Made by a program: the position numbers and the translations under genes. Positions 3,661 to 62,399 of a DNA stretch of 64,000 nt are shown in pieces; positions within the stretch are counted from its first letter, which is position 1; the number at the start of each line of letters is the position of its first letter. The DNA is taken from positions 6,278-70,277 of the forward strand of contig CAKULV010000002.1 of the NCBI GenBank assembly GCA_934667425.1. The letters are read 5' to 3'. The notes beneath the pieces are model-generated. The model had not been told where the DNA came from, did not search any database, and saw only the letters and a list, made by a program, of their open reading frames with translations. Origin of the DNA: an uncultured Kiritimatiellota bacterium. GTDB taxonomy: Bacteria > Verrucomicrobiota > Kiritimatiellia > RFP12 > UBA1067.

Positions 3661-3748
3661 TGCCGCGGGGGGCCGTCCTCCGGCCTCTGCAAGTTGCCTG
3701 TCGCCGGCGGGAGGGACGCGATTCATTTCGTCCATGTTCGCTCGGCAC

Positions 3749-3777: not shown

Positions 3778-3875
3778 ACCCACTTCAAGTCTCATCGGGT
3801 GATGAAGTCGGTGAGACCGCAGGAACGGACAAAACCCCGGTTGGGGACAAAGCCACAAACAAAAGGAAAAAGATA

Positions 3876-4310: not shown

Positions 4311-4324
4311 GGGGTCGAGAAGCT

Positions 4325-4726
4325 ATGGCTAACAAGAAGGTAATTTCGGCCGGCACCGGCCGCCGCAAAACCGCCGTCGCGCGCGTTACGCTCGTCGAGG
4401 GCAAGGGAGAGTGGACTGTAAACCGCGAGCCGCTTGAGGCGTACATCACGTCCGAGGCGCTCCGCGACTATCTGAAGCAGCCGATCGCGATTTCCGGCTA
4501 CGATCTTTCCTCGACCGACGTCGTGGTGTTCGCGAAGGGCGGCGGCGTGTCCGGCCAGGCCGGCGCGATCCGTCATGGCCTTGCGCGCGCCCTTGTGGCG
4601 GCGGATGCCAATCTGCGCGCCGCGCTCAAGAAGGCCGGCTGCATGACGCGCGACAGCCGCATGAAGGAACGCAAGAAACCCGGCCAGCCGGGTGCACGCA
4701 AGCGCTTCCAGTTCTCGAAGCGTTAA
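4325..4726 (+). CDS. rpsI: 30S ribosomal protein S9
   Basis: GTGRRKTAVARV...GGGVSGQAGAIRHGLARAL...PGARKRFQFSKR is the canonical S9 sequence, in the conserved rplM-rpsI order. Confidence 0.95.
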   Translation: MANKKVISAGTGRRKTAVARVTLVEGKGEWTVNREPLEAYITSEALRDYLKQPIAISGYDLSSTDVVVFAKGGGVSGQAGAIRHGLARALVAADANLRAALKKAGCMTRDSRMKERKKPGQPGARKRFQFSKR

Positions 4727-35617: not shown

Positions 35618-35746
35618 TGCGACGACGAGGGCGTCGTCGCTACGAAATTCAACAAATGACCAAATGCAATCGTAAATCTCTACCCACTACCAACTACCCT
35701 CTACCATCTGCCTGTCGTAAATCGAAAAATCGTAAATTCGTAAATC
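35618..35746. repeat. modular intergenic repeat, copy A (GC hairpin + conserved box + CTACC heptad array + GTAAATC-type heptads)
   Basis: GCGACGACGAGGGCGTCGTCGC (35618-35639), ACCAAATGCAATCGTAAATC (35658-35677), the CTACC array (35678-35708), and CGTAAATCGAAAAATCGTAAATTCGTAAATCCC (35714-35746). Confidence 0.85.
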
Positions 35747-35763
35747 CCAATACTTCGTTTTGC

Positions 35764-35832: not shown

Positions 35833-37845
35833 ATGATTTGTACGCTTCTGTTGGCAACCATCGTGCAGTGGGAGTTCCCCCGCACCGCATCCTGCCACGA
35901 GGGGATCCCGTTCGCGGACGGGAGAACCGGCGTTCTGGTGTGGGGCGGCGGCGACACGATCAACCTGACCGTCGGCCGTGGCGACCTCTGGGACCATCGT
36001 GGCGGATATGCCTGGACGGACGAGCAGAGCTACACCAACATCTGCGCGGCGGTGGCGACACGCGACAACGATAGGCTGAAGTCCCTCTTCTCCAACGAGC
36101 CTCCGCCCAACTGGGGCGGCAGGTACAATCCATACATGCTTCCCCTTGGGCGCGTTGTCGTGAAGATCCCGGGCAAGACGGTCCGGCGCGGTGCGCTTGA
36201 CACGGCTACGGGGCTTGGTGAGCTTTCGTTCACCGACGGCACGGGCGTACGGCTTGCCATGTCGAAGGCGAGCCATGCCTTTGCCATGCAGTTCCCGAAG
36301 GATGCGGAGTATTCGGTCCGGTCGGTCCCAGGGACGGAGTTTGACGTGTGGAAGACGCTTGCGAACCGGGGATTCGAGAAGGCGCGCGTGCTGGACGGAA
36401 GTGTTATCGGTGTGGGAGGCTTTTCCTGGAAACTCCCTGCGGACGAACAGGTGTGGCTGTCTTGGACCGTTGAAGGTCGGGAATTCGTGCTCAAGACCGG
36501 GCGGGGATACAAGGTGCTTGCTGGCGGTGTGCCGTTCGATCGCATGGCGTCAGAGTCGGCCGCGCATTGGTCTGCGTTCTGGCGCGAAGGCGCCCGCGTG
36601 AAGGTGCCGGATCCGGTCGTCCAGCAGATATTCGATCTCGGAATGTACAAGTTCGGCGCAATGACCGATCCTGACGGCTTTGCCGCCGGACTTCAGGGGC
36701 AGTGGCTCGAGGATGACAGGCTCGTGCCGTGGAACGGCGACTACCACTTCAACATCAACGTGCAGGAATGCTATTCGCCGGCGTATCGCGGCGGACACTT
36801 CAAGAACCTCATGCCGCTGTTCAGGATGGTGCTTTCATGGCGGCCGCTCCTTCGCGACAATGCGCGGAAGTTCGTGGGGATAGACCACGGCTACGTGCTG
36901 CCGCATTCGGTTGATGACCGGGGCGTGTGCATCGGCGGATTCTGGACCGGCACGATAGACCACGCCTCTACCGCTTGGATCGCATCCATGATGATGCGGT
37001 ATGTGCGCTATTCCGGCGACACGAGTTTCCTGAAGTCCGGCGCGTTCGACTTCATGAAGGGCGCGATGAGCGTGTACCGGGCGATGATGGAAGAGCGGAA
37101 CGGACGGCTCTCGATCCCGATCGGACCTTCCCCCGAATGGGGTGACAGCAATGTGCAGAAGGCCGTAGGCCGGGACCCTTCGTTCCAGCTTGCGGCGGCG
37201 CATCGCCTTGCGATGGATCTCGCGGATGCCGCCGTCCTTCTCGGCGAATCGCCAGATCCGATGTGGCTCGATGTCTCGAAGCGTCTGCCTGCATTCACCG
37301 ATGGGCCAAATGGCTTCCAGCTTTTCGAGGGCCAGCCATTCATCGCGTCGCACCGCCACCACTCCCACATGGCCGGCATCTATCCGTTCGACACTGTGGA
37401 TTTCGGCGACCCGAATTCGCGCCGTGCCGCATATGCGACGTACCGGAACTGGGTGTTCAAGGGTCCGGGAGAATGGAGCGGATGGTGTGTGCCATGGGCG
37501 GCGATCCTGCATACGCGATTCGGGAGCGCCGATGCCGCAGTCCAGATGCTCCACAACTGGAAGGTGTTCTACAACAATCCGGGACACGGGTCTTTGCACG
37601 ATGCCTTCCGCAGCGGGTTCACCGTGTTCACCGGCCGCCCCACGATCATGCAGATGGACGGACAGTGCGCGGCCGTGACTGCAATACTCGAGTTGATGGC
37701 GCATGAGACGAATGGGCGCGTGGAGTTCTTCAAGGGCTGTCCTGACGATTGGAAGGAAGTGTCGTTCGAGAACCTTGCCCTCTCGGATGGCCGCCGGGTC
37801 TCGGGCTCCCGCATAAACGGGAAGGTGAGAGTAGAGGGGTTTTAG
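35833..37845 (+). CDS. GH95-like (alpha/alpha)6 glycoside hydrolase
   Basis: GRTGVLVWGGGDTINLTVGRGDLWDHRGG and GLQGQWLEDDRLVPWNGDYHFNINVQECYSPAY resemble GH95 signature stretches. The TAG stop is the first TAG of repeat copy B. Confidence 0.55.
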   Translation: MICTLLLATIVQWEFPRTASCHEGIPFADGRTGVLVWGGGDTINLTVGRGDLWDHRGGYAWTDEQSYTNICAAVATRDNDRLKSLFSNEPPPNWGGRYNPYMLPLGRVVVKIPGKTVRRGALDTATGLGELSFTDGTGVRLAMSKASHAFAMQFPKDAEYSVRSVPGTEFDVWKTLANRGFEKARVLDGSVIGVGGFSWKLPADEQVWLSWTVEGREFVLKTGRGYKVLAGGVPFDRMASESAAHWSAFWREGARVKVPDPVVQQIFDLGMYKFGAMTDPDGFAAGLQGQWLEDDRLVPWNGDYHFNINVQECYSPAYRGGHFKNLMPLFRMVLSWRPLLRDNARKFVGIDHGYVLPHSVDDRGVCIGGFWTGTIDHASTAWIASMMMRYVRYSGDTSFLKSGAFDFMKGAMSVYRAMMEERNGRLSIPIGPSPEWGDSNVQKAVGRDPSFQLAAAHRLAMDLADAAVLLGESPDPMWLDVSKRLPAFTDGPNGFQLFEGQPFIASHRHHSHMAGIYPFDTVDFGDPNSRRAAYATYRNWVFKGPGEWSGWCVPWAAILHTRFGSADAAVQMLHNWKVFYNNPGHGSLHDAFRSGFTVFTGRPTIMQMDGQCAAVTAILELMAHETNGRVEFFKGCPDDWKEVSFENLALSDGRRVSGSRINGKVRVEGF

Positions 37846-37949
37846 TTGGTAGATGATAGTTGGTAGTTGGTAGTGGGTAGACGGTAGGTTTTGGTGGGAG
37901 AGGCGCAACTATCCTCTACCATCTACACTCTACCAACTATCCACTGTAG
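37843..37949. repeat. modular intergenic repeat, copy B (GGTAG-heptad arm, 21-nt loop, CTACC arm; no AT-rich core)
   Basis: The left arm is 37843-37888 and the right arm is 37910-37949. A perfect 12-bp complement is GATAGTTGGTAG (37855-37866) with CTACCAACTATC (37930-37941). Confidence 0.85.
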
Positions 37950-37971
37950 TGTCGGAAAGGTCTGGTGCGGA

Positions 37972-39786: not shown

Positions 39787-41843
39787 GCGCAAACGACGGA
39801 CTTCAAAGGGGGGCGTGCATGGCGGCCCTCGTGTCAGGCATGGCCTGGCTTGCGTCGGCCTCGGCGGCGGAGGGCTTCTATCGCGTGGGGCATTCCAACG
39901 GGCGCTGGGATATCCTGGATCCGCAGGGGCGCGTCACGTTCCTGCGGGGCGTGGATCATGTGCGCTATCGTGGGGTCTACACTTACGTCCATGGCGCGCC
40001 GTTCGGACACTACGAGCGCTGGAATGACGCGCATTACGCGAATGTGGCTGAATGGTGCGCGGAAACGTCGGACCGTCTGCGCACTTGGGGCTTCAACATG
40101 CTGGGCGGAGGCGAAGGCGAGGAAATGCGCGGACGAGGCTTCGCCTACGCGAAGTCGTTGGCGCTGAGCCACGGCTTGACGGTTGGCACGGGCAACAATG
40201 CGACAGGCGCGGGGAAGGAGGGGCTTTGGATATGCCCGCACGAAGGCTCCCCGTGCACCGAGTTCCCCAACGTGTTCCACCCCGGCTTCCCGGCATACTG
40301 CGACGGCGTGGCGGCGGAAAAGTGTGCGCCGTTGCGCGATGACCGCGATCTTGTGGGATATTTCATAGACAACGAGCTTGCCTGGTGGGGACGCGGCCCG
40401 CGGGCGACAGGTCTCTTTGACAGTACAAGGGCGTTGCCTCCGAGCCATACTGCGCGACAGGCGGTCGAGTCGTTTTTGCGTGAACGCGGGATTCCTTCAG
40501 AAGAGGCGACGGTCCCCGTATCCGTCAAGCGCGAGTTCCTGCGTATGGCCGCAGAAAAGTATTTCACCACGACCGTGGCGGCCATTCGACGCCATGACCC
40601 AAACCACATGGTGCTTGGCGCCCGGTTCGCCGGTGTGGAGGTTAACGACCCGATTGTATGGGAAGTCGCGGGACGCCATTGCGACATGCTGACGGTCAAC
40701 TGCTACCCATGGGCCGATCTTGATCGCAATGTCATCCTCACACGTCAGGCCGGCGGCGAACGGATCGCGGATGTGTTCCGTCGCCTGTGTTCCTTGGCCG
40801 GGCGACCTCTGTTCGTGACGGAATGGAGCTTTCCGGCGTTGGATACGCCGTGTCCGAGCACGCACGGTGGAGGCATGCGCTGCCGGACCCAACGCGAAAG
40901 GGCGCGTGCCTCGGAACTGTTTGCGCGAACATTGCTCGCGATGCCGGAGATCGTTGGCTACAGCTATTTCATGTGGGTGGACGAGCCTCCAGAAGGCATC
41001 AGCACGGTCTACCCGGAAAACTCAAACTATGGGCTCGTGAATGAACGGGGCGAACCATACGGGGATTTGACGCGGATGTTTGCGCAGTTGCATCGCAACG
41101 TGAAGAAGCTTCGTTGCGCACCGTTGCCAAAGGAACGTCCGGGCGGCGTGTTGGCCTCAAGGTTCGCCAGTTTGCATGGATTGAAGCCAGCGAATGGCTT
41201 TGCCGTGACAGGCAACGATTGGAGATGGACGAATGATGCGGGGCTGACGATAGAGGGCGGCACCGGTGCGGGACGAATGGTGCGGCGCACGACGCTGAAA
41301 GGCGCGGATCTCGGCACTGTCGGTGCGATGGGTCAGTACACGCTGGATGGCGCATCCGTATGGCATGAGCTTGAGACCGTTTCGGATGTGCGTTTCGCAG
41401 ACGGGGCCTTGGAATTGACGGCTTCCCGTCGCGGATGGAAGGGCGTTTCGTTCGAGATGACCTTCCGGCTGACGCTTGACGCCAGCCGTCCGGAGTTCAT
41501 GCTTGAACTCCTGCGGGTCCGCAACAGGGGCAGTGCGCCAATCCGCTTCAAGGCGTTCTTCCTGTGCCAGTATTCGCCGTTTGCCCGCGAGGGCGTCTTG
41601 CGCAGGAAACGTCCGCCGACGTGGGGGGACGACATCGCCACCGGCTGGCAGGCCAGGGATGGGCGCGTGTTCTCCGCGATGACACGGGCGCCGGATGTCG
41701 CGGTATTCAACTACTACGTCGATCCGCAGAGCGTGCATCCTGATGCCGCGTTTGCGCCGTCCGACCTGCCTGCGGAACTGTCGCCTGGCGCGGAGTATGA
41801 ATGCGCCGGCAGGGTGTGGATGCTCTGCCGTGGGGGTAGATGA
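39783..41843 (+). CDS. clan GH-A TIM-barrel glycoside hydrolase, family not assignable by eye
   Basis: ATGA overlap with the upstream gene and a signal peptide. FIDNELAWWG looks like an NE acid/base motif, and LFVTEWSFPA looks like a nucleophile E motif. Confidence 0.55.
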   Translation: MSANDGLQRGACMAALVSGMAWLASASAAEGFYRVGHSNGRWDILDPQGRVTFLRGVDHVRYRGVYTYVHGAPFGHYERWNDAHYANVAEWCAETSDRLRTWGFNMLGGGEGEEMRGRGFAYAKSLALSHGLTVGTGNNATGAGKEGLWICPHEGSPCTEFPNVFHPGFPAYCDGVAAEKCAPLRDDRDLVGYFIDNELAWWGRGPRATGLFDSTRALPPSHTARQAVESFLRERGIPSEEATVPVSVKREFLRMAAEKYFTTTVAAIRRHDPNHMVLGARFAGVEVNDPIVWEVAGRHCDMLTVNCYPWADLDRNVILTRQAGGERIADVFRRLCSLAGRPLFVTEWSFPALDTPCPSTHGGGMRCRTQRERARASELFARTLLAMPEIVGYSYFMWVDEPPEGISTVYPENSNYGLVNERGEPYGDLTRMFAQLHRNVKKLRCAPLPKERPGGVLASRFASLHGLKPANGFAVTGNDWRWTNDAGLTIEGGTGAGRMVRRTTLKGADLGTVGAMGQYTLDGASVWHELETVSDVRFADGALELTASRRGWKGVSFEMTFRLTLDASRPEFMLELLRVRNRGSAPIRFKAFFLCQYSPFAREGVLRRKRPPTWGDDIATGWQARDGRVFSAMTRAPDVAVFNYYVDPQSVHPDAAFAPSDLPAELSPGAEYECAGRVWMLCRGGR

Positions 41844-41980
41844 TAGTTGGTAGTTGGTAGAGTTTAGGGGAATTTACGATTTACGATTTACGATTGCATT
41901 TGGCCATTTAGGTATTTGATTTTACCTGCTACCAACTACAATCTATCAACTACCAACTACCCTCTACCAACTACCCACTA
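41835..41980. repeat. modular intergenic repeat, copy C (full: GGTAG arm + AT-rich core + CTACC arm)
   Basis: The arm is 41835-41862. The core TTTAGGGGAATTTACGATTTACGATTTACGATTGCATTTGGCCATTTAGGTATTTGATTTTA is 41863-41924. The CTACC array is 41925-41978. Confidence 0.9.
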
Positions 41981-42598
41981 AAACCTAAGCAGATGGCGGC
42001 GGAGGGCGATGGCGACGGCCTCGGCGCGATTGGCGGCGCCGATTTTCGAGAAGATGAGGTTCAGGTGCTCCTTCACGCTGTCCTCGCGGATGCCGAGCTG
42101 ATGCGCAATGTCCGCGTTGGTGAGCCCGCGCACGATCGACGACAGGATCACTTCCTGACGCTCGGTGAGCTTCTGCACCGGCGGGTCGGTGGCGATCTGT
42201 TTCTCGATTTCCGGCGACACCCAGCGTTTGCCGGCGGCAATGGCCCTTATCGCCGTAAGCAGCTGGGCATTGGCGTTTGACTTTGTGATCGCGCCATCGG
42301 CTCCCGCTTCGAGTGCGCGAGACAGGTCGTCGGACACAGTCGAGGTGGTTAGGATAAGCACACGGGTGTGCGGAAGCCGCGACTTGATCTCCTGTGTGGC
42401 GGAGATTCCGTCCCTAACCGGCATCATGATGTCCATGATCACGATGTCCGGCCTGTTGCGCATGGCCTTGCGGATGGCCACATCTCCGTCGTCTGCCTCT
42501 CCGATGACGCGGATGCCGGACTCCGGCTCAAGCAGGGCCGCAAGCCCCATGCGCACGATGGCGTGGTCGTCGGCGATCAGTACGGTCGTCTCCTTCAT
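41978..42598 (-). CDS. NarL/LuxR-family response regulator
   Basis: REC domain (VLIADDHAIVR...DIVIMDIMMP) plus a LuxR HTH (LTERQEVILSSIVRGLTNADIAHQLGIREDSVKEHL). Confidence 0.9.
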   Translation of the reverse strand: MKETTVLIADDHAIVRMGLAALLEPESGIRVIGEADDGDVAIRKAMRNRPDIVIMDIMMPVRDGISATQEIKSRLPHTRVLILTTSTVSDDLSRALEAGADGAITKSNANAQLLTAIRAIAAGKRWVSPEIEKQIATDPPVQKLTERQEVILSSIVRGLTNADIAHQLGIREDSVKEHLNLIFSKIGAANRAEAVAIALRRHLLRF

Positions 42599-49328: not shown

Positions 49329-51914
49329 ATGAAAAGACTGTTTACTGCCGCATGTGTTGCGTTTTCGGCCACGCTTGCGTCGGCCGGGACGGAGGTCGTG
49401 CCCGAGCTGCCGGTCGCGGGCGACACGACGATCGAGGTGCCGTCCGGCACGACGAGGCGGATCGAGTACCTTTCGGGGACAGATTCCGCGACGGTCACGA
49501 AGACCGGCGACGGAACGCTGGAGATCGCGGTCGTCGGCAACGCCAACATCGCCTTTGCCGTGCAGGAAGGCACGTTGCGCAGCGTGCGCCCTGGGCGGAT
49601 GCGCGCGATCGACGGCGTCTACTTCCACGTTGACGCGAACGACGTCACGGGAATGAGCGTCGTCCCCGCGAACGGCACGAACTTCGTCTCGCGCTGGGGC
49701 GACGTCGACGGCCGCGCGCCCTTTGCCCAATCACTGCCGGGGAAGCCGCGCCCGTTCCTGGCGGAAGGGACCCTCAACGGCTTGCAGGTCATGGATTTCG
49801 GCGGCTTCTCCAGCACCGAGGGCGTCGGCAGAGACGCGGACACGGCGGCCTACATGGACTGGAATGCGAAAAGGTTCGTGCGCGAGTCGTTTTGGGTCTG
49901 GAAGGATCATGATGGTCTGAAGGACCTTGCCTCCGCCAGCCAAAACGACTTTTACGGCCCGACGCCCGTGCTTCTCGGGGCGGCCCTGTATCGCGGCAAG
50001 GGCGGCAACGGCAAGGACTTCCTCTTCTCCAATGTCGAGGCGCCGGAGTCCCTGAAGCTCTCGGCCGCCGTCGATGGCGTCGCGCTGTCGTCGCCAACGG
50101 CCGCGCGCATCGGGGAAGGCTGGCACGTGGGCTGTGTGCGGATGCCGGGGACCTATACGGGAAGCAATGACCTTGACAAGGACTACGGCGGCGCCGCGTT
50201 CGGACGCCGCACGTACACGCCGCCGTCCGGCGGATTCCAGATGGCGGAGGCCGTGTTCTGCACGAATGCGGTTTCCGATGCCGACGCCGCCTACCTGAAC
50301 GACTACCTGCGCTGCAAGTGGTTCGCCGCCTCGGTCGGCGACGTCACGGTCGCGAAGGGGGCGACGCTGGATGTCGCGGAGGTTCCGCTGCGCATTGGAC
50401 GCCTTCACGTCATCGACGCGGCGAGCGTGGCCGGACTCGACAACCTTCGCGCCCTGGAGGTGTTCTGCCCGAGCAACACGATGCTGTCCGCAGGGGCGAC
50501 GTTCCATGCCGTGGACTTTGCGGAGTCGGCGACGCCCAACCTCGCGTTTGCCGGCGACGGGGAGATCGCGGTCGCGTCGGGAAGGGCTCGCGGCAACATG
50601 GTGGAGGCGTCGGGGACGCTTGCCAAGACCGGGATCGGCGAGCTGGAGCTTTCCTATCTGACCGAAGGCGTTACGGGGCTGTCCGTGACGGAAGGCGCAC
50701 TGACGCTCTCGCCGCTCCTTTCGTCCGCGAGCGTCCTGCACTTCGACGCGTCGCAGCGCGTGATGACGGAAGACGTTGGCGGGAAGGCGGTCGTGACCCG
50801 CTGGGACGACGTCAATGCCGGGCGCGGCAGCTCGCTGAAGGAAGTCGCGGGCGGCTATGCGTTTGACAGGTCGCGCCCGGTGAATCGCCCCTGCCTCGTG
50901 CCCGGGCTGGCAAACGGTCTCCCCTTGGTGGATTTCGGGGGCTTTGCCGACATGAACCACCCTGACGGGCATGGCGCGGGGCTTCAGTTCACCAGGCCGC
51001 TTGCAGGCGGGAAGTCGTCACTCACGACAAATGACGGATGGCTTCAGGCGTTTGCCGTCTGGCAGGACGACGAGTCGGCAAGCGCATTGGGCCTGGTCGA
51101 CGGAAGCGAGTTCGTCGGCCCTTGCCTCTTCGGGTCGAACTGGGCCTGGACACGCGGCAAGGGCGGCGGCGGAAACGGGTTCCCGCTCGCCGGAACGACG
51201 TCTTCCGATTTCCGCCAGAGCCTGAAGCTGGATGGCGTTCTGGTGCCGCCTGTCGAGTGCGGAAGCCGCCGGGTGCCTTCGGGGCTTCACCTTCTTGACA
51301 CGCGGCCTGGCTGTCAGGATGGCCTGAGCGGCGTTCAGGTCGTGGGCTGCAAGATCGGGGCGAAGGAAAGCTCGTACTACGGGGGCGTGAAGTTCGGCGA
51401 GTTCCTGTTCTTCCGCCATTACATTCCAGAGGGTCAGCGGCAGAAGATCGCCGCCGCGCTCGGCGTGAAGTGGTTCGGCACCGGCGCCTACAGGCTCGCG
51501 CAGACGTTCGGCTCCGTGTCCGTCGCGGACGGCGCCCGCGCGTCCTTCCCCTACGCGGACGTGACCGTGACGAACCTGACGGCCTCGGGCGAAGTGTCCG
51601 CGAGGTCGCTGACCGTCGCCGCCGGCGGACGGCTCATCGTCACCGGCGACGCGGAGTCCGTTTCGTGCCTGACCGCCAACGCGCTGCGCTTCGAGGGGTC
51701 TGGCGTCATCGAGCTGTCCGCGCCGGCGCTCGGCGGGCGCGTCGAGCGGGCGGTCAAGGTGGCGTCCGTCCCGAACGGGCCCGAGACGCCCGCACGGGTG
51801 CCGGGCTGGCGCGTGCCGTCCGCCGGCATCCTGTCGGTCGGCGGGCTGCTGGAGCGCCGCCAAGACGGGTACTACCTCGTCCCTCCACGCGGCGCGACAA
51901 TCGTGATCCGGTGA
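49329..51914 (+). CDS. large secreted protein with two LamG-like modules and a PATR-like segment
   Basis: Signal peptide MKRLFTAACVAFSATLASA. There is an internal duplication, with both modules starting [FL]H[VF]DA and ending KWF. LAKTGIGELELS is present. The protein ends ...RGATIVIR. Confidence 0.7.
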   Translation: MKRLFTAACVAFSATLASAGTEVVPELPVAGDTTIEVPSGTTRRIEYLSGTDSATVTKTGDGTLEIAVVGNANIAFAVQEGTLRSVRPGRMRAIDGVYFHVDANDVTGMSVVPANGTNFVSRWGDVDGRAPFAQSLPGKPRPFLAEGTLNGLQVMDFGGFSSTEGVGRDADTAAYMDWNAKRFVRESFWVWKDHDGLKDLASASQNDFYGPTPVLLGAALYRGKGGNGKDFLFSNVEAPESLKLSAAVDGVALSSPTAARIGEGWHVGCVRMPGTYTGSNDLDKDYGGAAFGRRTYTPPSGGFQMAEAVFCTNAVSDADAAYLNDYLRCKWFAASVGDVTVAKGATLDVAEVPLRIGRLHVIDAASVAGLDNLRALEVFCPSNTMLSAGATFHAVDFAESATPNLAFAGDGEIAVASGRARGNMVEASGTLAKTGIGELELSYLTEGVTGLSVTEGALTLSPLLSSASVLHFDASQRVMTEDVGGKAVVTRWDDVNAGRGSSLKEVAGGYAFDRSRPVNRPCLVPGLANGLPLVDFGGFADMNHPDGHGAGLQFTRPLAGGKSSLTTNDGWLQAFAVWQDDESASALGLVDGSEFVGPCLFGSNWAWTRGKGGGGNGFPLAGTTSSDFRQSLKLDGVLVPPVECGSRRVPSGLHLLDTRPGCQDGLSGVQVVGCKIGAKESSYYGGVKFGEFLFFRHYIPEGQRQKIAAALGVKWFGTGAYRLAQTFGSVSVADGARASFPYADVTVTNLTASGEVSARSLTVAAGGRLIVTGDAESVSCLTANALRFEGSGVIELSAPALGGRVERAVKVASVPNGPETPARVPGWRVPSAGILSVGGLLERRQDGYYLVPPRGATIVIR

Positions 51915-51916
51915 AA

Positions 51917-52030
51917 GATGGTAGTTGGTAGATGGTAGTTGGTAGGTTTTAGGGAATTTGCGATTTGCGATTTGCGATTGCATTTGGCCATTTAGGTATT
52001 TGATTCTACCCACTACCAACTACCATCTAC
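51917..52030. repeat. modular intergenic repeat, copy D (full)
   Basis: Perfect 18-bp inverted repeat: GTAGATGGTAGTTGGTAG (51928-51945) with CTACCAACTACCATCTAC (52013-52030). It flanks the core TTTTAGGGAATTTGCGATTTGCGATTTGCGATTGCATTTGGCCATTTAGGTATTTGATT. Confidence 0.9.
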
Positions 52031-52062
52031 GATTACATTGAGCCATTTGAGGATTTGCCGTG

Positions 52063-52083
52063 GCGACGACGCCCTCGTCGTCG
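52063..52083. repeat. GC hairpin CGACGACG-CCCT-CGTCGTCG (second copy, inverted, at 35618-35639)
   Basis: An 8-bp perfect stem. The copy in element A is the exact reverse complement, with loop AGGG. Confidence 0.8.
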
Positions 52084-52151
52084 TGAGGAAATCGCCGTGC
52101 AACCCGCCCTCGTCGTATAGAGAATGGCCGTGTGGGAGTGTAAATGGCAAC

Positions 52152-52176
52152 GGTCGCGACAAGCGCGACCCTCCCG
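52152..52176. repeat. hairpin motif GGWCGCG-ACAAG-CGCGWCC followed by CTCCCG (other copies at 62281-62306 and, inverted, 62341-62365)
   Basis: Three copies were read directly. The stem sequence differs between copies, but pairing, the ACAAG loop and the CCTCCCG tail are kept. Confidence 0.75.
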
Positions 52177-52250
52177 TGCAACGCACGACGGCGAGGGCGC
52201 ACCCCTCTTGCGACCGCTTGCGCGGCTCACTTCGTTCGGGGGATATGTCG

Positions 52251-52337
52251 CTACTACCAACTACCATCTACCAACTACCAACTCAAACGACCAAATGCAA
52301 TCGTAAATCGCAAATCCTAAATTCCCCTAAACCCTAC
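52251..52337. repeat. modular intergenic repeat, copy E (core in opposite orientation to copy D)
   Basis: The CTACC array is 52251-52283. It is followed by ACCAAATGCAATCGTAAATCGCAAATCCTAAATTCCCCTAAA, the reverse complement of the C/D core. Confidence 0.85.
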
Positions 52338-52349
52338 TTGCCTGATTTG

Positions 52350-52358
52350 TGGTATACT
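52350..52358 (+). promoter_or_regulatory. extended -10 TGgTATACT upstream of the Gfo/Idh/MocA gene
   Basis: It lies immediately downstream of repeat copy E and 33 nt before the ATG, with a GAAAGGAA RBS in between. Confidence 0.45.
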
Positions 52359-52391
52359 TACGGACATCGAAAAGAAAGGAATTGTTGCCTA

Positions 52392-53708
52392 ATGCAAAAC
52401 AGACGTGATTTCCTGAAGGGCGCGGCGGCGATCGGAGCATTCGCCATTGTGCCGGCCAGCGTGTTGCGCGGCGAGACCGCGCCATCCAACCAGCTCACCC
52501 GTGCGCTTATCGGCTTCGGCTCGATCGCGCATTCCGCGAACCACCTGCCTTTCAAGGGTTCGCGCCTCATCGGCCTGTGCGACCCTTACGAGGCCCGCGT
52601 GAAGGCCGGCCTCAAGGCTGCGGCGGACAAGGGCTTCGGCAAGGTCAAGGCGTACGGGAACTTCCTTGAGCTGCTTGCCGACAAGGATGTCGACATCGTC
52701 CACATCTGCACGCCGCCGCACTGGCACGGGTGCATGAGCGTGATGGCCGCGAACGCGGGCAAGGACATCTGGTGCGAGAAGCCCATGACGCGCACCGTGG
52801 GCGAAGGCAAGCGCGTGATGGAGGTCGTCAAGGCGAAGAAGCGCATGTTCCGCCTCAACACCTGGTTCCGCTTCCAGGGCACGTTCTACGGATTCGGCAC
52901 GACTGTCGAGCCCATCAGGCAGGTCGTGGAGAACGGACTTCTCGGGAATGGTCCGATCAAGTGCACGTTCGGCGCCGGGCAGGGCTTCAGCTGGAAGTTC
53001 TTCTGGTCCGGCCGCGTGAACGCCGCGCCGGAGCCGATCCCGCAGGGCTTCGACTGGGACATGTGGCTCGGCCCCGCGCCGTGGAAGCCGTACACGGCCC
53101 ACCGCGCCGGCACGTCGTTCCGCGGATACTGGGACTACGATTCGGGCGGGCTCGGCGACATGGCGCAGCACTACCTCGATCCGCTCCAGTACCTCCTCTG
53201 CAAGGATGATACCAGCCCGGTGAAGGTGGATTACGTCGGGCCGAAGCAGCATCCCGAGGCGGTGGGCCGCTTCGACCGCATCACGCTCACGTATGCGGAC
53301 GGCACGGAGGTCGTGCTTGACGGCGACGAGACGCTGAAGGGCGAGCCTCTCCTGCGCGGCTCCAACGGCCTGTGCGTGTATCCGAAGGCGAAGGGCGGCA
53401 AGACGCTCCGCCTCGTCGACGCCGGCGGCAAGGAGCTGGACGCGGAGAAGATACTCGCGGACCTTCCGAAGCCCGCCGCACAGCAGACGGACTTCATCGA
53501 CAGCTGCAAGAACCGCAAGACGTTCGCGCTCAACGAGTCGAACGGCTTCCGTTCCTGCACCATGTTCAACCTCGGCATCGCGGCCGAACGTCTTGGACGC
53601 GGGTTCAGGTTCGACCCGGAGACGCTGCATGCGGTCGACGATCCGGCCGCCGAGAGGTTCCTCTACCAGACAATGCGCGAACCGTGGCGCACGGAGATGT
53701 GGGGCTGA
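52392..53708 (+). CDS. TAT-exported Gfo/Idh/MocA family oxidoreductase
   Basis: MQNRRDFLKGAAAIGAFA is a twin-arginine signal. The Rossmann region and DIVHICTPPHWH are typical of the family. Confidence 0.85.
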   Translation: MQNRRDFLKGAAAIGAFAIVPASVLRGETAPSNQLTRALIGFGSIAHSANHLPFKGSRLIGLCDPYEARVKAGLKAAADKGFGKVKAYGNFLELLADKDVDIVHICTPPHWHGCMSVMAANAGKDIWCEKPMTRTVGEGKRVMEVVKAKKRMFRLNTWFRFQGTFYGFGTTVEPIRQVVENGLLGNGPIKCTFGAGQGFSWKFFWSGRVNAAPEPIPQGFDWDMWLGPAPWKPYTAHRAGTSFRGYWDYDSGGLGDMAQHYLDPLQYLLCKDDTSPVKVDYVGPKQHPEAVGRFDRITLTYADGTEVVLDGDETLKGEPLLRGSNGLCVYPKAKGGKTLRLVDAGGKELDAEKILADLPKPAAQQTDFIDSCKNRKTFALNESNGFRSCTMFNLGIAAERLGRGFRFDPETLHAVDDPAAERFLYQTMREPWRTEMWG

Positions 53709-55338: not shown

Positions 55339-55415
55339 TGGTCGGAGCGACGAGATTTGAACTCGTGACCTTTTGCACCCCAAGCAAACGCGCTACCAGA
55401 CTGCGCTACGCCCCG
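55339..55415 (-). tRNA. tRNA-Pro (anticodon GGG), CCA encoded
   Basis: The reverse complement folds by hand into a cloverleaf: acceptor CGGGGCG/CGCTCCG (one G-U pair), D stem GCGC/GCGC, anticodon stem TTTGC/GCAAA with loop TTGGGGT, T stem ACGAG/CTCGT with loop TTCAAAT, then ACCA. Length is 77 nt. Confidence 0.85.
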
Positions 55416-57586: not shown

Positions 57587-59794
57587 GTGTACGTAAAGGT
57601 CGCCATAGACCTTGCCCTCGACCGGCTCTTCACCTACGAAGTGCCGGTCGAATTGTCTGGTAGGATCAGGGTGGGGCAGATGCTGCGCGTGCCGTTCGGG
57701 CATCGCGAGGCGAGGGGCTTCGCCCTATCCACCGAAAGTGGCGACGGCGCCTCGCCGTCGTACAGGATCAAGCCGATCCTTGGCATTGCGGACGAGGCTC
57801 CGTTCTTCTCGCCACAGATGCTGCGGCTCGTAAGGTGGATATCCTCGTACACCTGCTCGCCAATCGAGATGTGCCTCAGGGCTGCGGTGCCGGCCGCAGT
57901 GCTGAAGCCGAACGCGAAGCCGAAGGAGCGCCTGTTCGTCGAGCCGGTAGCCGGTGCGCCTGATGCCGGGCTCACGGCCTATCAGCGCGAACTTCTCGGC
58001 AACATCGCGCGGGTGGGCGGCGGATGGATGCAGCAGCTCTGCCGCGAGTTCACGACGACGCCCGCGACCCTGCGCACGCTTGCATCGAAGGGCGTGGTGT
58101 GCATCGCGCCGCATGCGCAGCGGCGCGACCCTCTTGCGGGCCGCACGGTCCTCGCGTCCAGGCCGCTCGCGCTGAACGACATGCAGCGCAAGGCGCTGGA
58201 GGCGATAACCGGCGACGGTGCGCAGTCGGAGGGCGTGGATGGAAAGCCGCCGCGTCCGGTGCTGCTCCATGGCGTTACGGGGTCCGGCAAGACGGAGGTC
58301 TACCTCCAGGCCATCGCGCACGAGCTGGCGGCGGGGCGAGGCGCGATTGTGCTTGTGCCGGAGATATCGCTCACGCCGCAGACTGTGCGGCGGTTCGCCG
58401 GACGCTTCGGCGGCAAGGTGGCGGTTCTGCATTCGGCGCTTTCAGACGGCGAGCGGTACGACGAGTGGCATCGCATCCGCACGGGCGAGGCCCGCGTCGT
58501 AGTCGGGCCGCGCAGCGCGGTGTTCGCGCCAGTATGCAACCTGGGGCTGATAGTCGTGGACGAGGAACACGACATGAGCTACAAGCAGGACGAGACGCCC
58601 CGGTACAATGCGCGGGATGTCGCCGTGATGAGGGGTTCGCTCGAAGGCTGCCGGGTCGTGCTCGGGTCCGCAACCCCGTCGCTCGAGACGTGGCTGAACG
58701 CAAAGAGGGGAAAGTACGCTCTGGCGTCGATGGCCTCCCGCGTCGCCGGGCATCCCATGCCGACGGTGCATCTCCTCAATCTTGCGGAGGAGTGCGAGGC
58801 GTACGCATCCGCGCCGATCTTCTCGAAGTTCCTGCTGGACGCGATTGCCGAGCGCGTCCGCCGCGGCGAGCAGACGATCCTCTTCCTGAACAGGCGCGGA
58901 TATTCCCGCGTGTGCGAATGCAGGGGATGCGGATACGTGGCCACCTGTCCGAACTGCAGCGTGGCATACACGTACCATTCCGTGGACAGCTGCCTGCGCT
59001 GCCACATATGCGGGGCGTGGACGCCGCCGCCGATTACGTGCCCGGACTGCGGCGGACACGATTTCTCCTACGCTGGCGTAGGCACGCAGCGGGCCGAGCA
59101 GGCCTTGCGCAAGTGCTTTCCCCATGCCCGCATACTCCGCATGGACGCCGATTCTACGTCCAGGAAGAATTCGCACGACGACATCCTCTCTAAGTTCCGG
59201 GCGCGTGAGGCCGATGTGCTCATCGGAACCCAGATGATCGCGAAGGGGCTGGATTTCCCGAACGTAACGCTGGTAGGCGTGCTGAACGCCGATGCGTCGC
59301 TCAACATGCCGGACTTCCGGGCGGCGGAGCGGACTTTCCAGCTCATTGCGCAGGTTTCGGGAAGGGCGGGGCGGGCCGAGAAGCCGGGCGAGGTGTTCAT
59401 CCAGACGTTCCATCCGGACGAGTTCGTGATCCGTGCCGCCGCAGACGCGGACTTCATCAGGTTCGCCGACGCCGAGCTCAGGGATCGCGAGGCGGCGGGA
59501 TTTCCCCCGTACATGAAGTTCTCAACGGCAATGTTCCGCGCCAGGGACTGCGCATCGGCGCAGCGCTGGGCGGAGCTGTACTCGAAGTCACTCGCGAAAT
59601 GCCCCGGGCTGATCGTGACCGAGGCCGTTCCGCCCGCCATCGAGCGGGCGGACGGCTGGTACAGGTTCATGGTGCAGATACGGTCTGCCACCTCGAACGC
59701 CATATCCTCGGCCTGGCGCTGGATATCGAAGGCGCGTCCGGCGCCGAAGGACATGCGCGTCGCCATCGACATCGACGCCCTTGACGTGATGTAG
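57587..59794 (+). CDS. priA: primosomal protein N' (replication restart helicase PriA)
   Basis: VKVAIDLALDRLFTYEVP at the N-terminus, GVTGSGKTEVY, DEEHD, and a Cys-rich zinc insertion (CRGCGYVATCPNCSVAYTYH...CHICG...CPDCGG). The GTG at 57587 is preferred. The ATG at 57545 is the alternative. Confidence 0.85.
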   Translation: MYVKVAIDLALDRLFTYEVPVELSGRIRVGQMLRVPFGHREARGFALSTESGDGASPSYRIKPILGIADEAPFFSPQMLRLVRWISSYTCSPIEMCLRAAVPAAVLKPNAKPKERLFVEPVAGAPDAGLTAYQRELLGNIARVGGGWMQQLCREFTTTPATLRTLASKGVVCIAPHAQRRDPLAGRTVLASRPLALNDMQRKALEAITGDGAQSEGVDGKPPRPVLLHGVTGSGKTEVYLQAIAHELAAGRGAIVLVPEISLTPQTVRRFAGRFGGKVAVLHSALSDGERYDEWHRIRTGEARVVVGPRSAVFAPVCNLGLIVVDEEHDMSYKQDETPRYNARDVAVMRGSLEGCRVVLGSATPSLETWLNAKRGKYALASMASRVAGHPMPTVHLLNLAEECEAYASAPIFSKFLLDAIAERVRRGEQTILFLNRRGYSRVCECRGCGYVATCPNCSVAYTYHSVDSCLRCHICGAWTPPPITCPDCGGHDFSYAGVGTQRAEQALRKCFPHARILRMDADSTSRKNSHDDILSKFRAREADVLIGTQMIAKGLDFPNVTLVGVLNADASLNMPDFRAAERTFQLIAQVSGRAGRAEKPGEVFIQTFHPDEFVIRAAADADFIRFADAELRDREAAGFPPYMKFSTAMFRARDCASAQRWAELYSKSLAKCPGLIVTEAVPPAIERADGWYRFMVQIRSATSNAISSAWRWISKARPAPKDMRVAIDIDALDVM

Positions 59795-60868: not shown

Positions 60869-62194
60869 ATGGCAGAGAAGAAGTGCGCCAAGGCGAAGTG
60901 CGCCAAGGCGAAGTGTGCCAAGGCGGCCCCGAAGGTCGAGAAGCTGGCCATAGATGGCGGCAAGAAGGTGTGGAGCAAGGGATTCCCTGCGTGGCCCCAG
61001 TTCAACCCGAAGACCGACAAGAAGGTGCTTGACATCCTTCATTCCGGCAAGGTCAACTACTGGACCGGTCCCGTTGGAATGCAGTTCGAGGCCGCGTGGG
61101 CCAAGTGGCTCGGCGTGAAGAACGCGATCTCGGTCTCCAACGGCACGGCGGCGCTTCACGTGGCGCTCACGGCCCTTGGCATCGGCTCCGGCGACGAGGT
61201 GATCTGCACGTCCTATTCGTTCATCGCCTCTTCGTTCTGCGCACTGCAGGCAGGGGCGCTCCCGGTGTTCGTCGATACCGGCACGGATCACCTGATCGAT
61301 CCCGCAAAGATCGAGGCCGCGATCACGAAGCGCACCAAGGCGATCGTAGTCGTGCACCTCTACGGCATGGTCGCCGACATGGATCCGATCATGAAGATAG
61401 CGAAGAAGCACAACCTCTACGTGGTCGAGGACTGCGCACAGTGCTTCGGCGGCAGGTACAAGGGCAAGAAGGCGGGCACGATCGGCACCGTCGGCTGCTT
61501 CTCGTTCTGCCAGAGCAAGCACTTCACGACCGGCGGCGAAGGCGGCATGGTGTGCTGCAACGACGACAATCTCGCCTGGGAATGCCGTTCGGTGCGCGAC
61601 CACGGGTATGACGTCCGCGCAAAGCTCAACCTCCTCAAGATGGAAGGCAAGCAGCTCTACATCCACCGTCGCGTCGGCTACAACTTCCGCATGACGGAGA
61701 TCCAGAGCGCCATCGGCCTCGGCGAACTCGAGCGCTTCGACAAGTGGAACCTGCCCCAGCGCAAGAAGCTCGGCAAGGCCCTGATCAAGGGGCTCAAGGG
61801 CCATCCGCTGATCAAGCATCTCCCCGTGGACACCAAGGAGCGCGAGAACTGCTTCTGGCTCGTCCCGTTCGTGGTGGACACCTCCAAGCTGAAGTGCACG
61901 ATGAAGGAGTTCATCGCCGCAGTCCAGGCCGAGGGCGCTTGCGCATATTCGGTGCTGTGGCCGGAGATGTACAAGGAGGAGGCGTTCACGAAGCAGAAGG
62001 GCTTCGGCTCGCGCCAGTATCCGTTCAAGGATCCCGCCGCCCGCAAGATCGACTACACGAAGTTCAACTGCGAGGTCGCGCACGCGCTCGCCGACTCCAC
62101 GATCTCCTTCTGGACGCATCCCACGTACACGCTCGCCCACATCGAGGCGGACGTAAAGGCGTTCAAGAAGGTCGCGGCAGCGATGATGAAGTAG
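60869..62194 (+). CDS. DegT/DnrJ/EryC1/StrS family PLP aminotransferase with KCAKA-repeat N-terminus
   Basis: AISVSNGTAALHVAL, CTSYSFIASS and FSFCQSKHFTTGEGG (PLP lysine region). ATG at 60869 follows an AGGAAA-type RBS. Confidence 0.85.
   Translation: MAEKKCAKAKCAKAKCAKAAPKVEKLAIDGGKKVWSKGFPAWPQFNPKTDKKVLDILHSGKVNYWTGPVGMQFEAAWAKWLGVKNAISVSNGTAALHVALTALGIGSGDEVICTSYSFIASSFCALQAGALPVFVDTGTDHLIDPAKIEAAITKRTKAIVVVHLYGMVADMDPIMKIAKKHNLYVVEDCAQCFGGRYKGKKAGTIGTVGCFSFCQSKHFTTGGEGGMVCCNDDNLAWECRSVRDHGYDVRAKLNLLKMEGKQLYIHRRVGYNFRMTEIQSAIGLGELERFDKWNLPQRKKLGKALIKGLKGHPLIKHLPVDTKERENCFWLVPFVVDTSKLKCTMKEFIAAVQAEGACAYSVLWPEMYKEEAFTKQKGFGSRQYPFKDPAARKIDYTKFNCEVAHALADSTISFWTHPTYTLAHIEADVKAFKKVAAAMMK
60881..60925 (+). 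repeat. in-frame 15-bp tandem repeat x3 (AAGTGCGCCAAGGCG), encoding (KCAKA)3
   Basis: Units are 60881-60895, 60896-60910 and 60911-60925. The third unit has one C>T change. Confidence 0.9.
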
Positions 62195-62217: not shown

Positions 62218-62247
62218 GAGACGGGCGGCCTTCGGGCCGCCCGTCTC
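62218..62247 (+). terminator. stem-loop GAGACGGGCGGCC-TTCG-GGCCGCCCGTCTC after the DegT-type gene
   Basis: A perfect 13-bp GC-rich stem with a TTCG tetraloop, 24 nt after the stop. The trailing T-tract is weak (CTTAAAT). Confidence 0.5.
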
Positions 62248-62399
62248 CTTAAATCAAGCATGAGAGGCCGTTGCAAAACCGGACGCGACAAGGCGCGTCC
62301 CTCCCGTATCTTCGCCGAACTGTCAAGATTCGCCATTCTTCGGGAGGGACGGGCTTGTCCCGTCCGCAATCGCTAAGGCTTGCAACTATCTGATACGAA

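Follow-up and report, generated by a model that had tools for sequence, protein, structure and literature searches.

What is the non-coding locus at 51917–52337, which lies between the end of an 872-aa gene and a promoter-like site of an oxidoreductase operon? The first-pass annotation of this DNA, a 64,000-nt stretch from an uncultured Kiritimatiellota bacterium (hereafter, the window), described two inverted repeat copies, D and E, that bracket a GC-rich, highly structured, non-coding centre (52031–52250), and it proposed either a non-autonomous mobile element with terminal modules and a cargo or a structured RNA gene. The features that it listed are present where it placed them, but the reading of the locus needs to be changed. 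Our analysis indicates, with a probability of about 0.78, that 51917–52337 belongs to a mosaic, lineage-specific family of intergenic repeats, of which it is one copy, and that this family is comparable with REP/BIME/REPIN elements. Its copies are dispersed between the genes of a human-gut Lentisphaerae/Kiritimatiellae-type bacterium, and they combine 7-base tandem arrays with short palindromes that carry a GT(A/G)G tag and are of the known REP/BIME kind. The locus is neither a cargo-carrying transposon nor a dedicated RNA gene; it is ordinary repeat biology and should not be annotated as either of the two. As a REP/BIME-type family in little-studied human-gut PVC bacteria, the repeats appear undescribed, and their motifs were not found in the literature searched.

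Modules of the locus and their recurrence

Both copies, D and E, are AT-rich (41% GC) leaders composed of (GGTAGNT)n and (GCGATTT)n arrays and a degenerate core, GATTGCATTTGGYCRTTT (Table 1). They are indeed inverted relative to each other: the core arms (51945–51993 and 52285–52333) are 86% complementary over 49 nt, and the heptamer arms (51916–51945 and 52254–52283) are 97% complementary over 30 nt. TRF detected period-7 arrays at 51919–51945, 51956–51979, 52006–52030 and 52253–52322, as well as in copies A–C, and the window contains 20 occurrences of the heptamer GGTAGTTGGTAG (up to one mismatch), compared with 0.12 expected. Because the array at 52006–52030 complements the one at 51917–51945, D is a self-contained hairpin, which folds at −45.8 kcal/mol (z = −5.7). 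Its leader is 89% identical to copy C over 84 nt, and leader plus core are also found at 18 metagenome loci. The leader of copy E reads, on the minus strand, GTAGGGTTTAGGGGAATTT, (AGGATTT/GCGATTT/ACGATT) and the core GCATTTGGTCGTTTGAG, and the array at 52255–52283 directly joins the GTAG head of H1::M3, a variant of palindrome H1 with a 50-nt insert.

Table 1. Features of the locus and of related copies in the window
Feature	Position	Strand	Remarks
Copy A	35620..35750	−	(TTTACGA)n, (GGTAGNG)x4, core, linker, GTAG-H1 (35620–35643)
Copy B	37836..37950	+	heptamer-array hairpin, no core, no REP; z = −2.8
Copy C	41834..41987	+	heptamer-array/core hairpin between convergent genes; z = −5.7
Heptamer array (GGTAGNT)x4	51917..51945	+	period 7, 90–100% matches; begins 2 nt past the stop codon (51912–51914) of the 872-aa gene
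AT-rich leader, unit 1	51946..52005	+	GTTTTAGGGAATTT, (GCGATTT)x3, core GATTGCATTTGGCCATTTAGGTATTTGATT; like copy C
Heptamer array (CTACCNA)x3.5	52006..52030	+	complement of the first array
Variant box	52031..52059	+	degenerate core copy plus linker (GATTACATTGAGCCATTTGAGGATTTGCC); box-then-H1 order elsewhere
REP-like palindrome H1	52060..52085	+	head GTGG unpaired, CGACGACG, loop CCCT, CGTCGTCG, tail TG
Second H1 copy, 3' half	52105..52116	+	CGCCCTCGTCGT; 5' arm of the annotated long-range stem
Degenerate H1-tail module	52117..52150	+	GAATGGCCGTGT(A/G)G(A/G)AGTGTA(G/A)A; recurs at other loci
REP-like palindrome H2	52151..52176	−	CGGGAG-GGTCGCG-CTTGT-CGCGACC-G on the minus strand
Linker plus H1::M3	52177..52254	−	linker TGCGTTGCA, H1 variant with 50-nt insert; GTAG head 52251–52254
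Heptamer array (GGTAGNT)x4	52255..52283	−	read on the minus strand; 97% complementary to 51916–51945
AT-rich leader, unit 2 (copy E)	52284..52337	−	inverted matches to D; kept in L144
Extended −10-like site	52350..52358	+	TGGTATACT, oxidoreductase operon; 12 nt past leader E, outside the repeat

The centre (220 nt) consists of H1, a half copy of H1, H2 and the H1 variant with the 50-nt insert. Among the elements first described there, we recovered the variant box (52031–52056), the hairpin CGACGACG-CCCT-CGTCGTCG (52064–52083), the direct repeat CCGTGCAAC (52095–52103 and 52174–52182), the hairpin GGTCGCG-ACAAG-CGCGACC (52152–52170) and the sequences of the long-range stem, in which CGCCCTCGTCGT (52105–52116) is complementary to 52189–52199 (extendable to 52158+31, giving 12 bp with one G-T pair). 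The centre is not distinctly GC-rich, however, since its GC content (62.3%) is close to that of the whole window (61.8%) and only the flanks deviate (41%).

H1 is a 26-nt palindrome of the form CGAYGRCG-CC(C)T-CGYCRTCG, with an 8-bp stem and a 3–4-nt loop, and the copy at 52060 folds at −17.4 kcal/mol (z = −2.6). In a sample of ~270 kb, selected by the core motif and therefore biased, we counted 38 sequence-distinct H1 copies and 36 H2 hairpins, alleles of one locus included. The heads of the 38 H1 copies are GTGG (25), GTAG (12) and GTTG (1), with TG or CA at the opposite end, and 36 of them are fully paired. Three stem types (ACGACG, ACGGCG and ATGGCG) differ by complementary changes, and the stems CGACGACG, CGACGGCG and CGATGGCG each have a matching 3' arm. 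H2, of the type GGGAGG-GWCGNNN-loop-NNNCGWC-CG, has at least eight compensated stem variants and is a palindrome family of its own; an H2 dimer at 62279–62366 is free of heptamers.

The remaining modules recur in similar surroundings (L numbers label the fetched loci). The order of box and then GTRG-H1 is repeated in copy A, L126, L129, L130, L135 and L139; the H1-tail module leads into GTAG-containing arrays in L125, L128, L129, L130, L139 and L142; and a conserved linker, TGCGTTGCRCG, joins H1 to H2. H1::M3, which reads GTAG-CGAC, ATATCCCCCGAACGAAGTGAGCCGCGCAAGCGGTCGCAAGAGGGGTG and CGCCCTCGCCGTCG-TG on the minus strand, is also present in L001 (twice), L002, L003, L004, L125, L128, L129 and L132. 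The motif CGCCCTCGTCGT occurs four times in the window, each time within an H1 unit, and is replaced in L002; the long-range stem is simply two H1 halves in opposite orientation.

A scan with the core found 18 metagenome stretches (~13 distinct loci), and in all 18 the leader is followed by H1/H2/M3 modules in varying order and orientation. Modules were found in other combinations at ≥15 loci of the source organism. The window itself, an unbiased 64 kb, holds five copies of the family, with four H1-type and three H2 units, six of these seven lying outside ORFs; an H1-like copy is contained, in frame, in priA. Copy B sits between a GH95 gene and the next gene, and copy C, which has no REPs in the window strain, has an H1 + H2 cluster at the same place in strain L126. 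The content of the centre is fully accounted for by repeat modules known from other loci.

Could the centre instead be what is left of a decayed coding gene, or of the ATPase cassette of other strains? An AAA_14/DUF4143 gene or fragment does occupy this site in L001 and L003. However, the 220 nt bear no similarity to the cassette and lie beside it in L001 and on both of its sides in L003, where the central unit is duplicated around it. As first described, only short ORFs cross the region: none of the six that cross the centre has a Pfam match, and the strain indels of 7, 2, 4 and 27 nt would break any frame. With its content explained by modules present at other loci, a coding origin is extremely improbable, and the alignments already contradict it.

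Read as a copy of a mosaic repeat family, the locus has two composite, converging units. In each, an AT-rich leader of (GGTAGNT)n and (GATTTRC)n arrays comes first and decays into the core, and the GC-rich palindromes H1 and H2 follow. The GTRG tags of the two units point outward. Because the units are inverted, the leaders look like the terminal inverted repeats D and E, and the palindromes look like a structured cargo.

Folding, alleles and the proposed RNA gene

Could the segment 52031–52250 encode a structured non-coding RNA, or serve the oxidoreductase operon as a cis-regulatory leader RNA? Its local hairpins do exist and persist between strains (in L002, H1 shows one compensatory double change from A-T to G-C, and H2 is invariant in five alleles), and the segment is bordered by a gene end and a promoter-like site. 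On the other hand, the centre, though annotated as highly structured, folds like dinucleotide shuffles on both strands (z = −1.10 on the plus and −0.96 on the minus strand). The whole locus (z = −6.7) and D fold significantly, and they do so because of the inverted heptamer and core arms. A search of Rfam, at the gathering score and at E ≤ 1, returned nothing at the locus and only a tRNA (55342–55415) in the rest of the window.

The comparison of alleles likewise argues against an RNA. In L002, a strain with a 100% identical flanking protein, 5 of the 12 pairs of the long-range stem are lost without compensation and ~50 nt of the centre are replaced. Covariation among five alleles falls within the range of shuffled controls, with 94 of the 500 shuffles reaching the observed value. 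Furthermore, the hairpins stand in both orientations to neighbouring genes at many loci, and the segment is absent at the 92%, 86% and 85% homologue loci. As the segment is upstream of the promoter-like −10 site, it would not be part of the 5' UTR of the operon. We consider an RNA gene or leader at this position highly improbable.

Comparison with known repeat families

The repeat-family reading, by contrast, draws on a close likeness to REPs of the GTAG superfamily. H1 has the stem-loop size of these elements and carries an unpaired GTRG/GTGG head at one end only; the stems of H1 and H2 fall into complementary subfamilies; and the units are predominantly extragenic. REPs of this superfamily are dispersed at about 100 or more copies per genome. 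As in BIMEs and REPINs, they form inverted pairs or reiterated clusters with conserved linkers: H1(+) at 52060 and H1::M3(−) at 52254 are an outward-headed pair, and inverted H1 pairs are reiterated with a period of 118 nt in L131 and L134. The shared traits are thus GC-rich palindromes with a 6–9-bp stem, a short loop and an unpaired GT[A/G]G at one end, compensated stem subfamilies, a mostly extragenic position, inverted dimers with tags outward, strain variability, and tandemly reiterated clusters together with other motifs. GTAG-tagged REPs with GTRG/GTGG variants, compensated stem subfamilies and tags-outward dimers have been described, REPs have been reported in the PVC bacteria Opitutus terrae (GTGG heads) and Rhodopirellula baltica as well as inside replication and repair genes, and NIMEs are mentioned in section 7 of the same paper (PMC3733652).

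The family also departs from the described REP/BIME/REPIN elements. Its long AT-rich leaders of 7-nt repeats lie outside their described anatomy, and H2 carries a GGGAGG tag in place of GTAG or CGTC and is, as a rule, coupled to H1. For the mobilisation of REPIN/BIME elements, the literature (PMC3733652, PMC3116915) invokes RAYT transposases acting in trans. By analogy with that literature, a RAYT-type HUH/Y1 transposase that recognises the hairpin and the GTRG tag would spread and maintain the palindromes in trans. In REPIN–RAYT systems, the same genome has a cognate RAYT (Pfam Y1_Tnp), which the REPs typically flank. No RAYT gene was found in the window, L001–L005 and L125–L142 (262 kb), where tblastn with the E. 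coli RayT gave nothing below E = 0.16. Also by REP precedent, hairpins that form part of the 3' end of the upstream gene's transcript would stabilise this mRNA as a barrier or terminate transcription. A consensus scan of 51700–52600 for intrinsic terminators gave no sites, and without a T-tract in the hairpins, there is no support for a canonical intrinsic terminator.

The nearest precedent for the architecture is Anabaena variabilis, in which GTAG-15 REP dimers lie inside long AT-rich palindromes (Di Nocera et al. 2013, PMC3733652). In both cases, inverted AT-rich arms bracket GC-rich hairpins, but the sequences differ, and the arms are variable heptamer arrays here and a fixed 25-nt palindrome half there. 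Furthermore, "empty" palindromes without REPs exist here (copies B and C), whereas none were found in A. variabilis.

The arrays themselves resemble heptameric intergenic simple-sequence repeats, being tandem, non-coding 7-nt units with a copy number that varies between strains. Intergenic heptamer repeats with positional preferences are known, namely GGGNATC (PMC4692102) and TAACTGA (PMC4679880). We compared our arrays with cyanobacterial STRR, GGGNATC of Xanthomonas/Nostoc and TAACTGA of Beggiatoaceae/cyanobacteria, and found in common the tandem units in ~2–8 copies (often four), the copy-number variation, and the non-coding position near stop codons or upstream of starts. The likeness to these named families is one of kind and not of membership, as the unit sequences differ; in addition, several heptamer types are concatenated here in a fixed order, and they form inverted pairs that make long hairpins and are fused to REP-like palindromes. 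Neisseria NIMEs, Correia elements and pneumococcal BOX are likewise shuffled, modular, short intergenic blocks with a variable number of internal modules, and they share with the present family the trait of being hotspots of rearrangement and gene insertion. Their sequences and boundary motifs are unrelated to it, and they are not GTAG-tagged hairpins.

Is the locus, then, a discrete MITE, in which D and E are the terminal inverted repeats of a 220-nt cargo inserted as one piece upstream of the operon? Like MITEs, it is small and non-coding and has inverted ends and a strong predicted hairpin. The complementarity of the D and E arms, the folding of the whole locus far better than shuffles, and the absence of the region upstream of the related oxidoreductase genes that we examined would all fit such an insertion. 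However, there is no direct repeat (TSD) at 51917 or 52337 and no cognate IS; D by itself forms a complete hairpin unit, the equivalent of copy C; and the ends are tandem arrays whose length varies between strains. We found no second full-length copy in the window or in the fetched loci, where the pieces, including the supposed cargo modules, recur separately and in other orders. Strains differ by the gain, loss and inversion of internal modules and not by the presence or absence of the whole unit. L144 retains only leader E plus two H2 units. Moreover, the relatives that have no element also have no upstream synteny, so that they offer no true empty site. An insertion of this type is very unlikely. 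Of the first-pass proposal of non-autonomous repeated or mobile DNA, what holds is that the centre is an inverted pair of GT[A/G]G-tagged REP-like palindromes (REPIN/BIME type); the form of terminal modules plus cargo is not supported.

The plasmid database, searched in distant mode, had no match to the locus. In viral contigs, all matches to the core pattern came from an unrelated coding motif (…TIAFGRFNPP…), and the H1 pattern gave one unrelated match, with no phage link.

Heptamer leaders, the oxidoreductase promoter and strain variation

Do the leaders affect the neighbouring genes? The locus had been placed just upstream of the promoter of the oxidoreductase operon, and this position is plausible: the extended −10-like TGGTATACT is conserved in the relatives L144 and L145 and is similar in L146 and L147, both of which are without the repeats. 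On the other hand, a scan of 51700–52600 with the sigma-70 consensus gave no sites and no canonical −35/−10 pair. The arrangement of the leader next to this promoter is suggestive of an AT-rich upstream promoter element of variable length. In a related explanation, the heptamer arrays and core would be arrays of protein-binding sites or a variable-length upstream promoter element that tunes or phase-varies the adjacent operon, with the palindromes being incidental. Leader E stops 12 nt short of TGGTATACT, and L144 has kept it despite different upstream DNA. By a raw count, ~8 of ~17 distinct loci have the outer end of the leader 11–85 nt from a TGnTAnnnT and a long outward ORF, and the arrangement is also found beside a Kiritimatiellae promoter in L024. 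The whole-heptamer variation in array length and the positional preferences known for other heptamer repeats (PMC4692102, PMC4679880) point in the same direction. However, copies C and D face gene ends and not promoters, relatives express the same operon context without the leader, and there is no known binding protein. We regard this regulatory explanation as rather unlikely; for the leader part, it is compatible with a REP-like repeat family.

A more speculative and distinctly doubtful idea is that the leaders are a functional component of a REP system, one not described so far, through which the spread of REPs would be coupled to a heritable, strain-variable tuning of neighbouring operons. 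It is suggested because the GTAG tag is repeated throughout the (GGTAGNT)n arrays, which pass without a break into REP heads, and because the (GATTTRC)n/core leaders adjoin extended −10 promoters. The REP-processing enzyme could make or use the arrays by repeated cleavage and joining at GTAG or, alternatively, the arrays could act as variable-length elements upstream of promoters. If true, this would bear on operon tuning in gut Lentisphaerae/Kiritimatiellae, and if the fusion of GTAG arrays to REP heads is mechanistic, it would bear on the origin and processing of REPs. A general coupling of (GGTAGNT)n arrays to GTAG palindromes was rejected, as unrelated phyla have such arrays without any adjacent palindromes; in a contig search with the general pattern GGTAGNTGGTAGNTGGTAG, the matches listed were in unrelated genomes, and none of them had the core or the palindromes. 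The arrays may therefore be an independent class of simple-sequence repeats that merely co-localises with REPs. The formation of G-quadruplexes by (GGTAGNT)4 arrays is unlikely, with only GG tracts and 5-nt loops.

More than 100 contigs carry the identical oxidoreductase. Between strains with identical flanking genes, indels of 7, 7, 28 and 7 nt lie in the arrays; L002, for example, has 28 nt (four more units) added to the array at 52255–52283 and 7 nt to leader E. This change by whole heptamers points to replication slippage. Larger differences include an extra inverted copy of H1::M3 in L001 and, in L144, the replacement of the upstream flank by HsdR/RadC genes. Upstream of the 92% orthologue, and of the 85–86% homologues in their non-syntenic contexts, the region is missing, and this absence in relatives shows the repeats to be lineage-restricted. 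A clean empty site was sought among the relatives and none was found: upstream synteny differs at the 97% and 85–86% loci, the 97% locus having other upstream genes, and the 92% contig reaches only 220 nt beyond the gene on its upstream side.

This site is a recombination and insertion hotspot, and the family marks strain-variable sites of gene insertion and flank replacement, such as those of the ATPase cassette and the restriction/RadC island. The repeats also break metagenome assemblies, three of which end within the region, and their 7-nt VNTRs are usable in strain typing.

Modular make-up of the locus

Between an 872-aa gene, whose stop codon is at 51912–51914, and the oxidoreductase gene, whose start codon is at 52392, a spacer of 477 nt contains the D–E locus (51917–52337). 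The window has a GC content of 62%, and its genes include FtsH, GH95, a response regulator, DUF6259, the TAT-signal Gfo/Idh/MocA oxidoreductase, a 3-keto-disaccharide hydrolase and PriA. Over 100 contigs from human-gut metagenomes encode the oxidoreductase without any sequence change, and its close homologues carry the NCBI labels Lentisphaerae, Kiritimatiellae or Verrucomicrobiota. The sole Rfam match within the window is a tRNA gene (RF00005, 66 bits; 55342–55415, minus strand).

All the sequence features listed by the first-pass annotation at this locus were found where it had placed them, and D and E are indeed inverted, with 49 nt at 86% and 30 nt at 97% complementarity. These two copies, as well as three further ones in the window (A–C), are written almost entirely in a 7-nt register, and the heptamer motif is very strongly over-represented (20 matches observed vs. 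0.12 expected). The AT-rich leader runs in the order (GGTAGNT)n, GTTTAGGGGAATTT, (GCGATTT or ACGATTT)n and then the degenerate GATTGCATTTGGYCRTTT(A/G)GG.ATTTG, this continuation often being followed by a complementary (CTACCNA)n array. Copies B, C and D each form a self-contained long hairpin directly after a stop codon; C is positioned exactly between two convergent genes, D starts 2 nt past the stop codon, and no T-tract was found after D. Two near-perfect tandem repeats, apparently within ORFs, are unrelated to the heptamer family (60880–60925, period 15 nt, 3.1 copies, 96%; 31820–31863, period 21 nt, 2.1 copies, 100%).

A metagenome scan with the core, the degenerate motif within the leader, recovered 18 stretches representing about 13 distinct loci. 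In two of these stretches (L127 and L140), the window's loci A, C and E are seen again in other samples; the 18 stretches therefore belong to this organism or to very closely related ones. At the scanned loci, the leader repeatedly leads into the same GC-rich modules. The hairpin H1 (GT[A/G]G-CGAYGRCG-CC(C)T-CGYCRTCG-TG) occurs in 38 sequence-distinct copies, some of them allelic, with the heads GTGG (25), GTAG (12) and GTTG (1). When five inner stem positions were left free in the search, all copies fell into three stem types with complementary changes between them, and 36 of the 38 were perfectly paired. The second hairpin, H2 ((C)GGGAGG-GWCGNNN-loop-NNNCGWC-CG), has a stem that varies in at least eight compensated forms; TGCGTTGCRCG usually links it to H1. 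In H1::M3, a constant insert of 50 nt interrupts the 5' arm of H1, and the H1-tail module, GAATGGCCGTGTAGAAGTGTAGAA, continues into GTAG-containing arrays.

These recurring modules fully explain the window's 220-nt centre. Consequently, what had been described as a long-range stem consists of two oppositely oriented H1 halves; CCGTGCAAC, which is repeated, belongs to the H1–H2 linker region. The GTAG head of H1::M3 adjoins the (GGTAGNT)4 array of E, and the hairpin neighbouring copy A is a further H1 with the same box, a variant copy of the core, in front of it. The locus thus comprises two composite units that converge; in each, palindromes come after a leader, and the GTRG tags point outward.

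Modules of the 220-nt centre and copies of the repeat family in the window
Feature	Position	Strand
Box/linker	52031–52059	+
H1	52060–52085	+
H1 3' half	52105–52116	+
Degenerate tail module	52117–52150	+
H2	52151–52176	-
Linker plus H1::M3	52177–52254	-
Copy A (adjoining H1 hairpin 35620–35643)	35640–35750	
Copy B	37836–37950	
Copy C	41834–41987	

Folding of the centre and its flanks

Could the centre be a structured RNA gene, as the first-pass annotation proposed alongside a non-autonomous mobile element? The segment had been called GC-rich and highly structured. Its GC content is 62.3%, compared with 61.8% for the window, and it is instead the AT-rich flanks (41%) that deviate. The structured-RNA reading of the centre fails by a refutation criterion that the first-pass annotation had itself set, in that the folding energy does not differ from that of shuffled controls (z = −1.10 and −0.96 for the two strands). 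The strong folding signal comes from the inverted arms (z = −5.7 for D, −5.7 for C and −6.7 for the whole locus). The long-range stem is not conserved: among five natural alleles, the contig L002 loses 5 of its 12 pairs with no compensation, and 94 of 500 shuffles show as much covariation as the proposed structure does in its entirety. The observation was real but its emphasis on structure misplaced, and the earlier reading holds only broadly, as non-autonomous repeated DNA.

Strain variation at the repeat site

We compared contigs with an identical oxidoreductase that differ at the repeat site. Relative to the window, L002 differs by −7, +7, +28 and +7 nt in its arrays, has a 50-nt stretch replaced and shows a double change in H1, from A-T to G-C. 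In L001, an intact AAA_14/DUF4143 ATPase gene (8438–9598, within 8306–9712; 54% GC vs. 68% in neighbouring genes), with an AT-rich upstream region of its own, is inserted, with a (CTACCNA)n array on one side of it; on the other, the gene is followed by an inverted box, then a (GGTAGNT)8 array and one more H1::M3, also inverted. In L003, the central unit is duplicated and flanks a truncated, internally deleted copy of this gene on both sides (8880–9600). Three independent contigs (L004:1–254, L005:1–223 and L145:1–220) end 220–254 nt upstream of the oxidoreductase gene, in or at the repeat region, the ends of L004 and L005 being consistent with assembly breaks in the repeat.

L144 has an oxidoreductase with 97% protein identity. 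Of the repeat region it retains no more than leader E and two H2 units, and upstream, genes for RadC and a type I restriction R subunit (602–4527) stand in place of the DUF6259/872-aa gene block; the synteny break coincides exactly with the repeat region. Locus C, a REP-free heptamer/core hairpin of 150 nt in the window, is about 315 nt long in L126 (1330–1665) and is built there in the same way as the D–E locus, with two inverted cores around H1 and three or four units of H2. Upstream of homologues with 92%, 86% and 85% identity, where the regions are short or different, no repeat modules were found, and a TGGTATACT-like −10 is retained. It follows that the element is restricted to this lineage, that the operon can do without it, and that it is a hotspot where slippage and recombination occur. 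The locus belongs to a repeat family, maintains its hairpins, slips by 7 nt and rearranges. It is of use for annotation, assembly and strain typing.

Relation to REP elements and possible roles

The GTAG REP superfamily comprises 20–40-nt palindromes with 6–9-bp stems, short loops and an unpaired GTAG at one end (GTRG in some families; degenerated to GTGG in most Opitutus terrae GTAG-20 elements), and its subfamilies carry alternative complementary stem residues (Di Nocera et al., PMC3733652). Dimers with tags outside or inside at 20–100 bp spacing, tandemly reiterated clusters, occasional in-frame copies in replication/repair genes, including in Opitutus terrae, and, in A. variabilis, dimers embedded in long AT-rich palindromes have also been described (PMC3733652). 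Judged by its sequence, H1 fits every REP trait testable at that level. Inverted H1 pairs recur in tandem with a 118-nt period in L131:2020–2340 and L134:6400–6900, the latter with H2 too, resembling BIME arrays. An H1-like palindrome, GTGG-CGACGGCG-CCT-CGCCGTCG (57738–57763), lies in frame in the priA N-terminal domain, encoding ...SGDGASPSY..., and is slightly decayed in L144 and L003. Between convergent genes, an H2 dimer (inverted palindromes 62279–62305 and 62337–62366) occurs with no heptamer array; a terminator-like hairpin, GACGGGCGGCC-TTCG-GGCCGCCCGTC, precedes this pair, and the whole spans 62219–62366. By analogy with REPs, a RAYT-type enzyme would spread or maintain the palindromes in trans, and they might act as terminators or stabilisers at mRNA 3' ends; no tblastn match to E. 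coli RayT was found in 262 kb (window plus fetched loci). The locus is best classified as a new variant, specific to this lineage, among mosaic repeats of the REP/BIME/REPIN type, the heptamer-array leaders being its unusual feature.

Such leaders are absent from described REP/BIME anatomy and most closely resemble heptameric simple-sequence repeats in intergenic DNA (PMC4692102, PMC4679880). In about 8 of roughly 17 distinct loci, D–E among them, the outer end of the leader lies 11–85 nt from TGnTAnnnT followed by an outward-reading long ORF, and in a Kiritimatiellae contig heptamer arrays adjoin a TTGACA/TGGTATAAT promoter. There is therefore room for a role of the leader as an upstream-promoter element or phase-variation device, which these positions suggest and which is compatible with a REP-type mosaic. 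Among the matches listed, (GGTAGNT)n arrays occur without palindromes in many phyla, and none of those in unrelated phyla carries the core or palindromes of the H1/H2 family; the arrays may therefore form a repeat class of their own that became fused to REPs in this lineage. There is a small chance of a new mechanistic link between GTAG arrays and REP processing. Long intergenic (GGTAGCT)n, (GGTAGGT)n and (GGTAGTT)n arrays were seen among the matches listed in L010, L041, L063, L068, L072, L058, L043, L061 and L024, the array-bearing groups being Betaproteobacteria, Chromatiales, Acidobacteriota, cyanobacteria, Ruminococcus and rumen Kiritimatiellae, and some arrays of unrelated phyla adjoin partial inverted copies or promoters.
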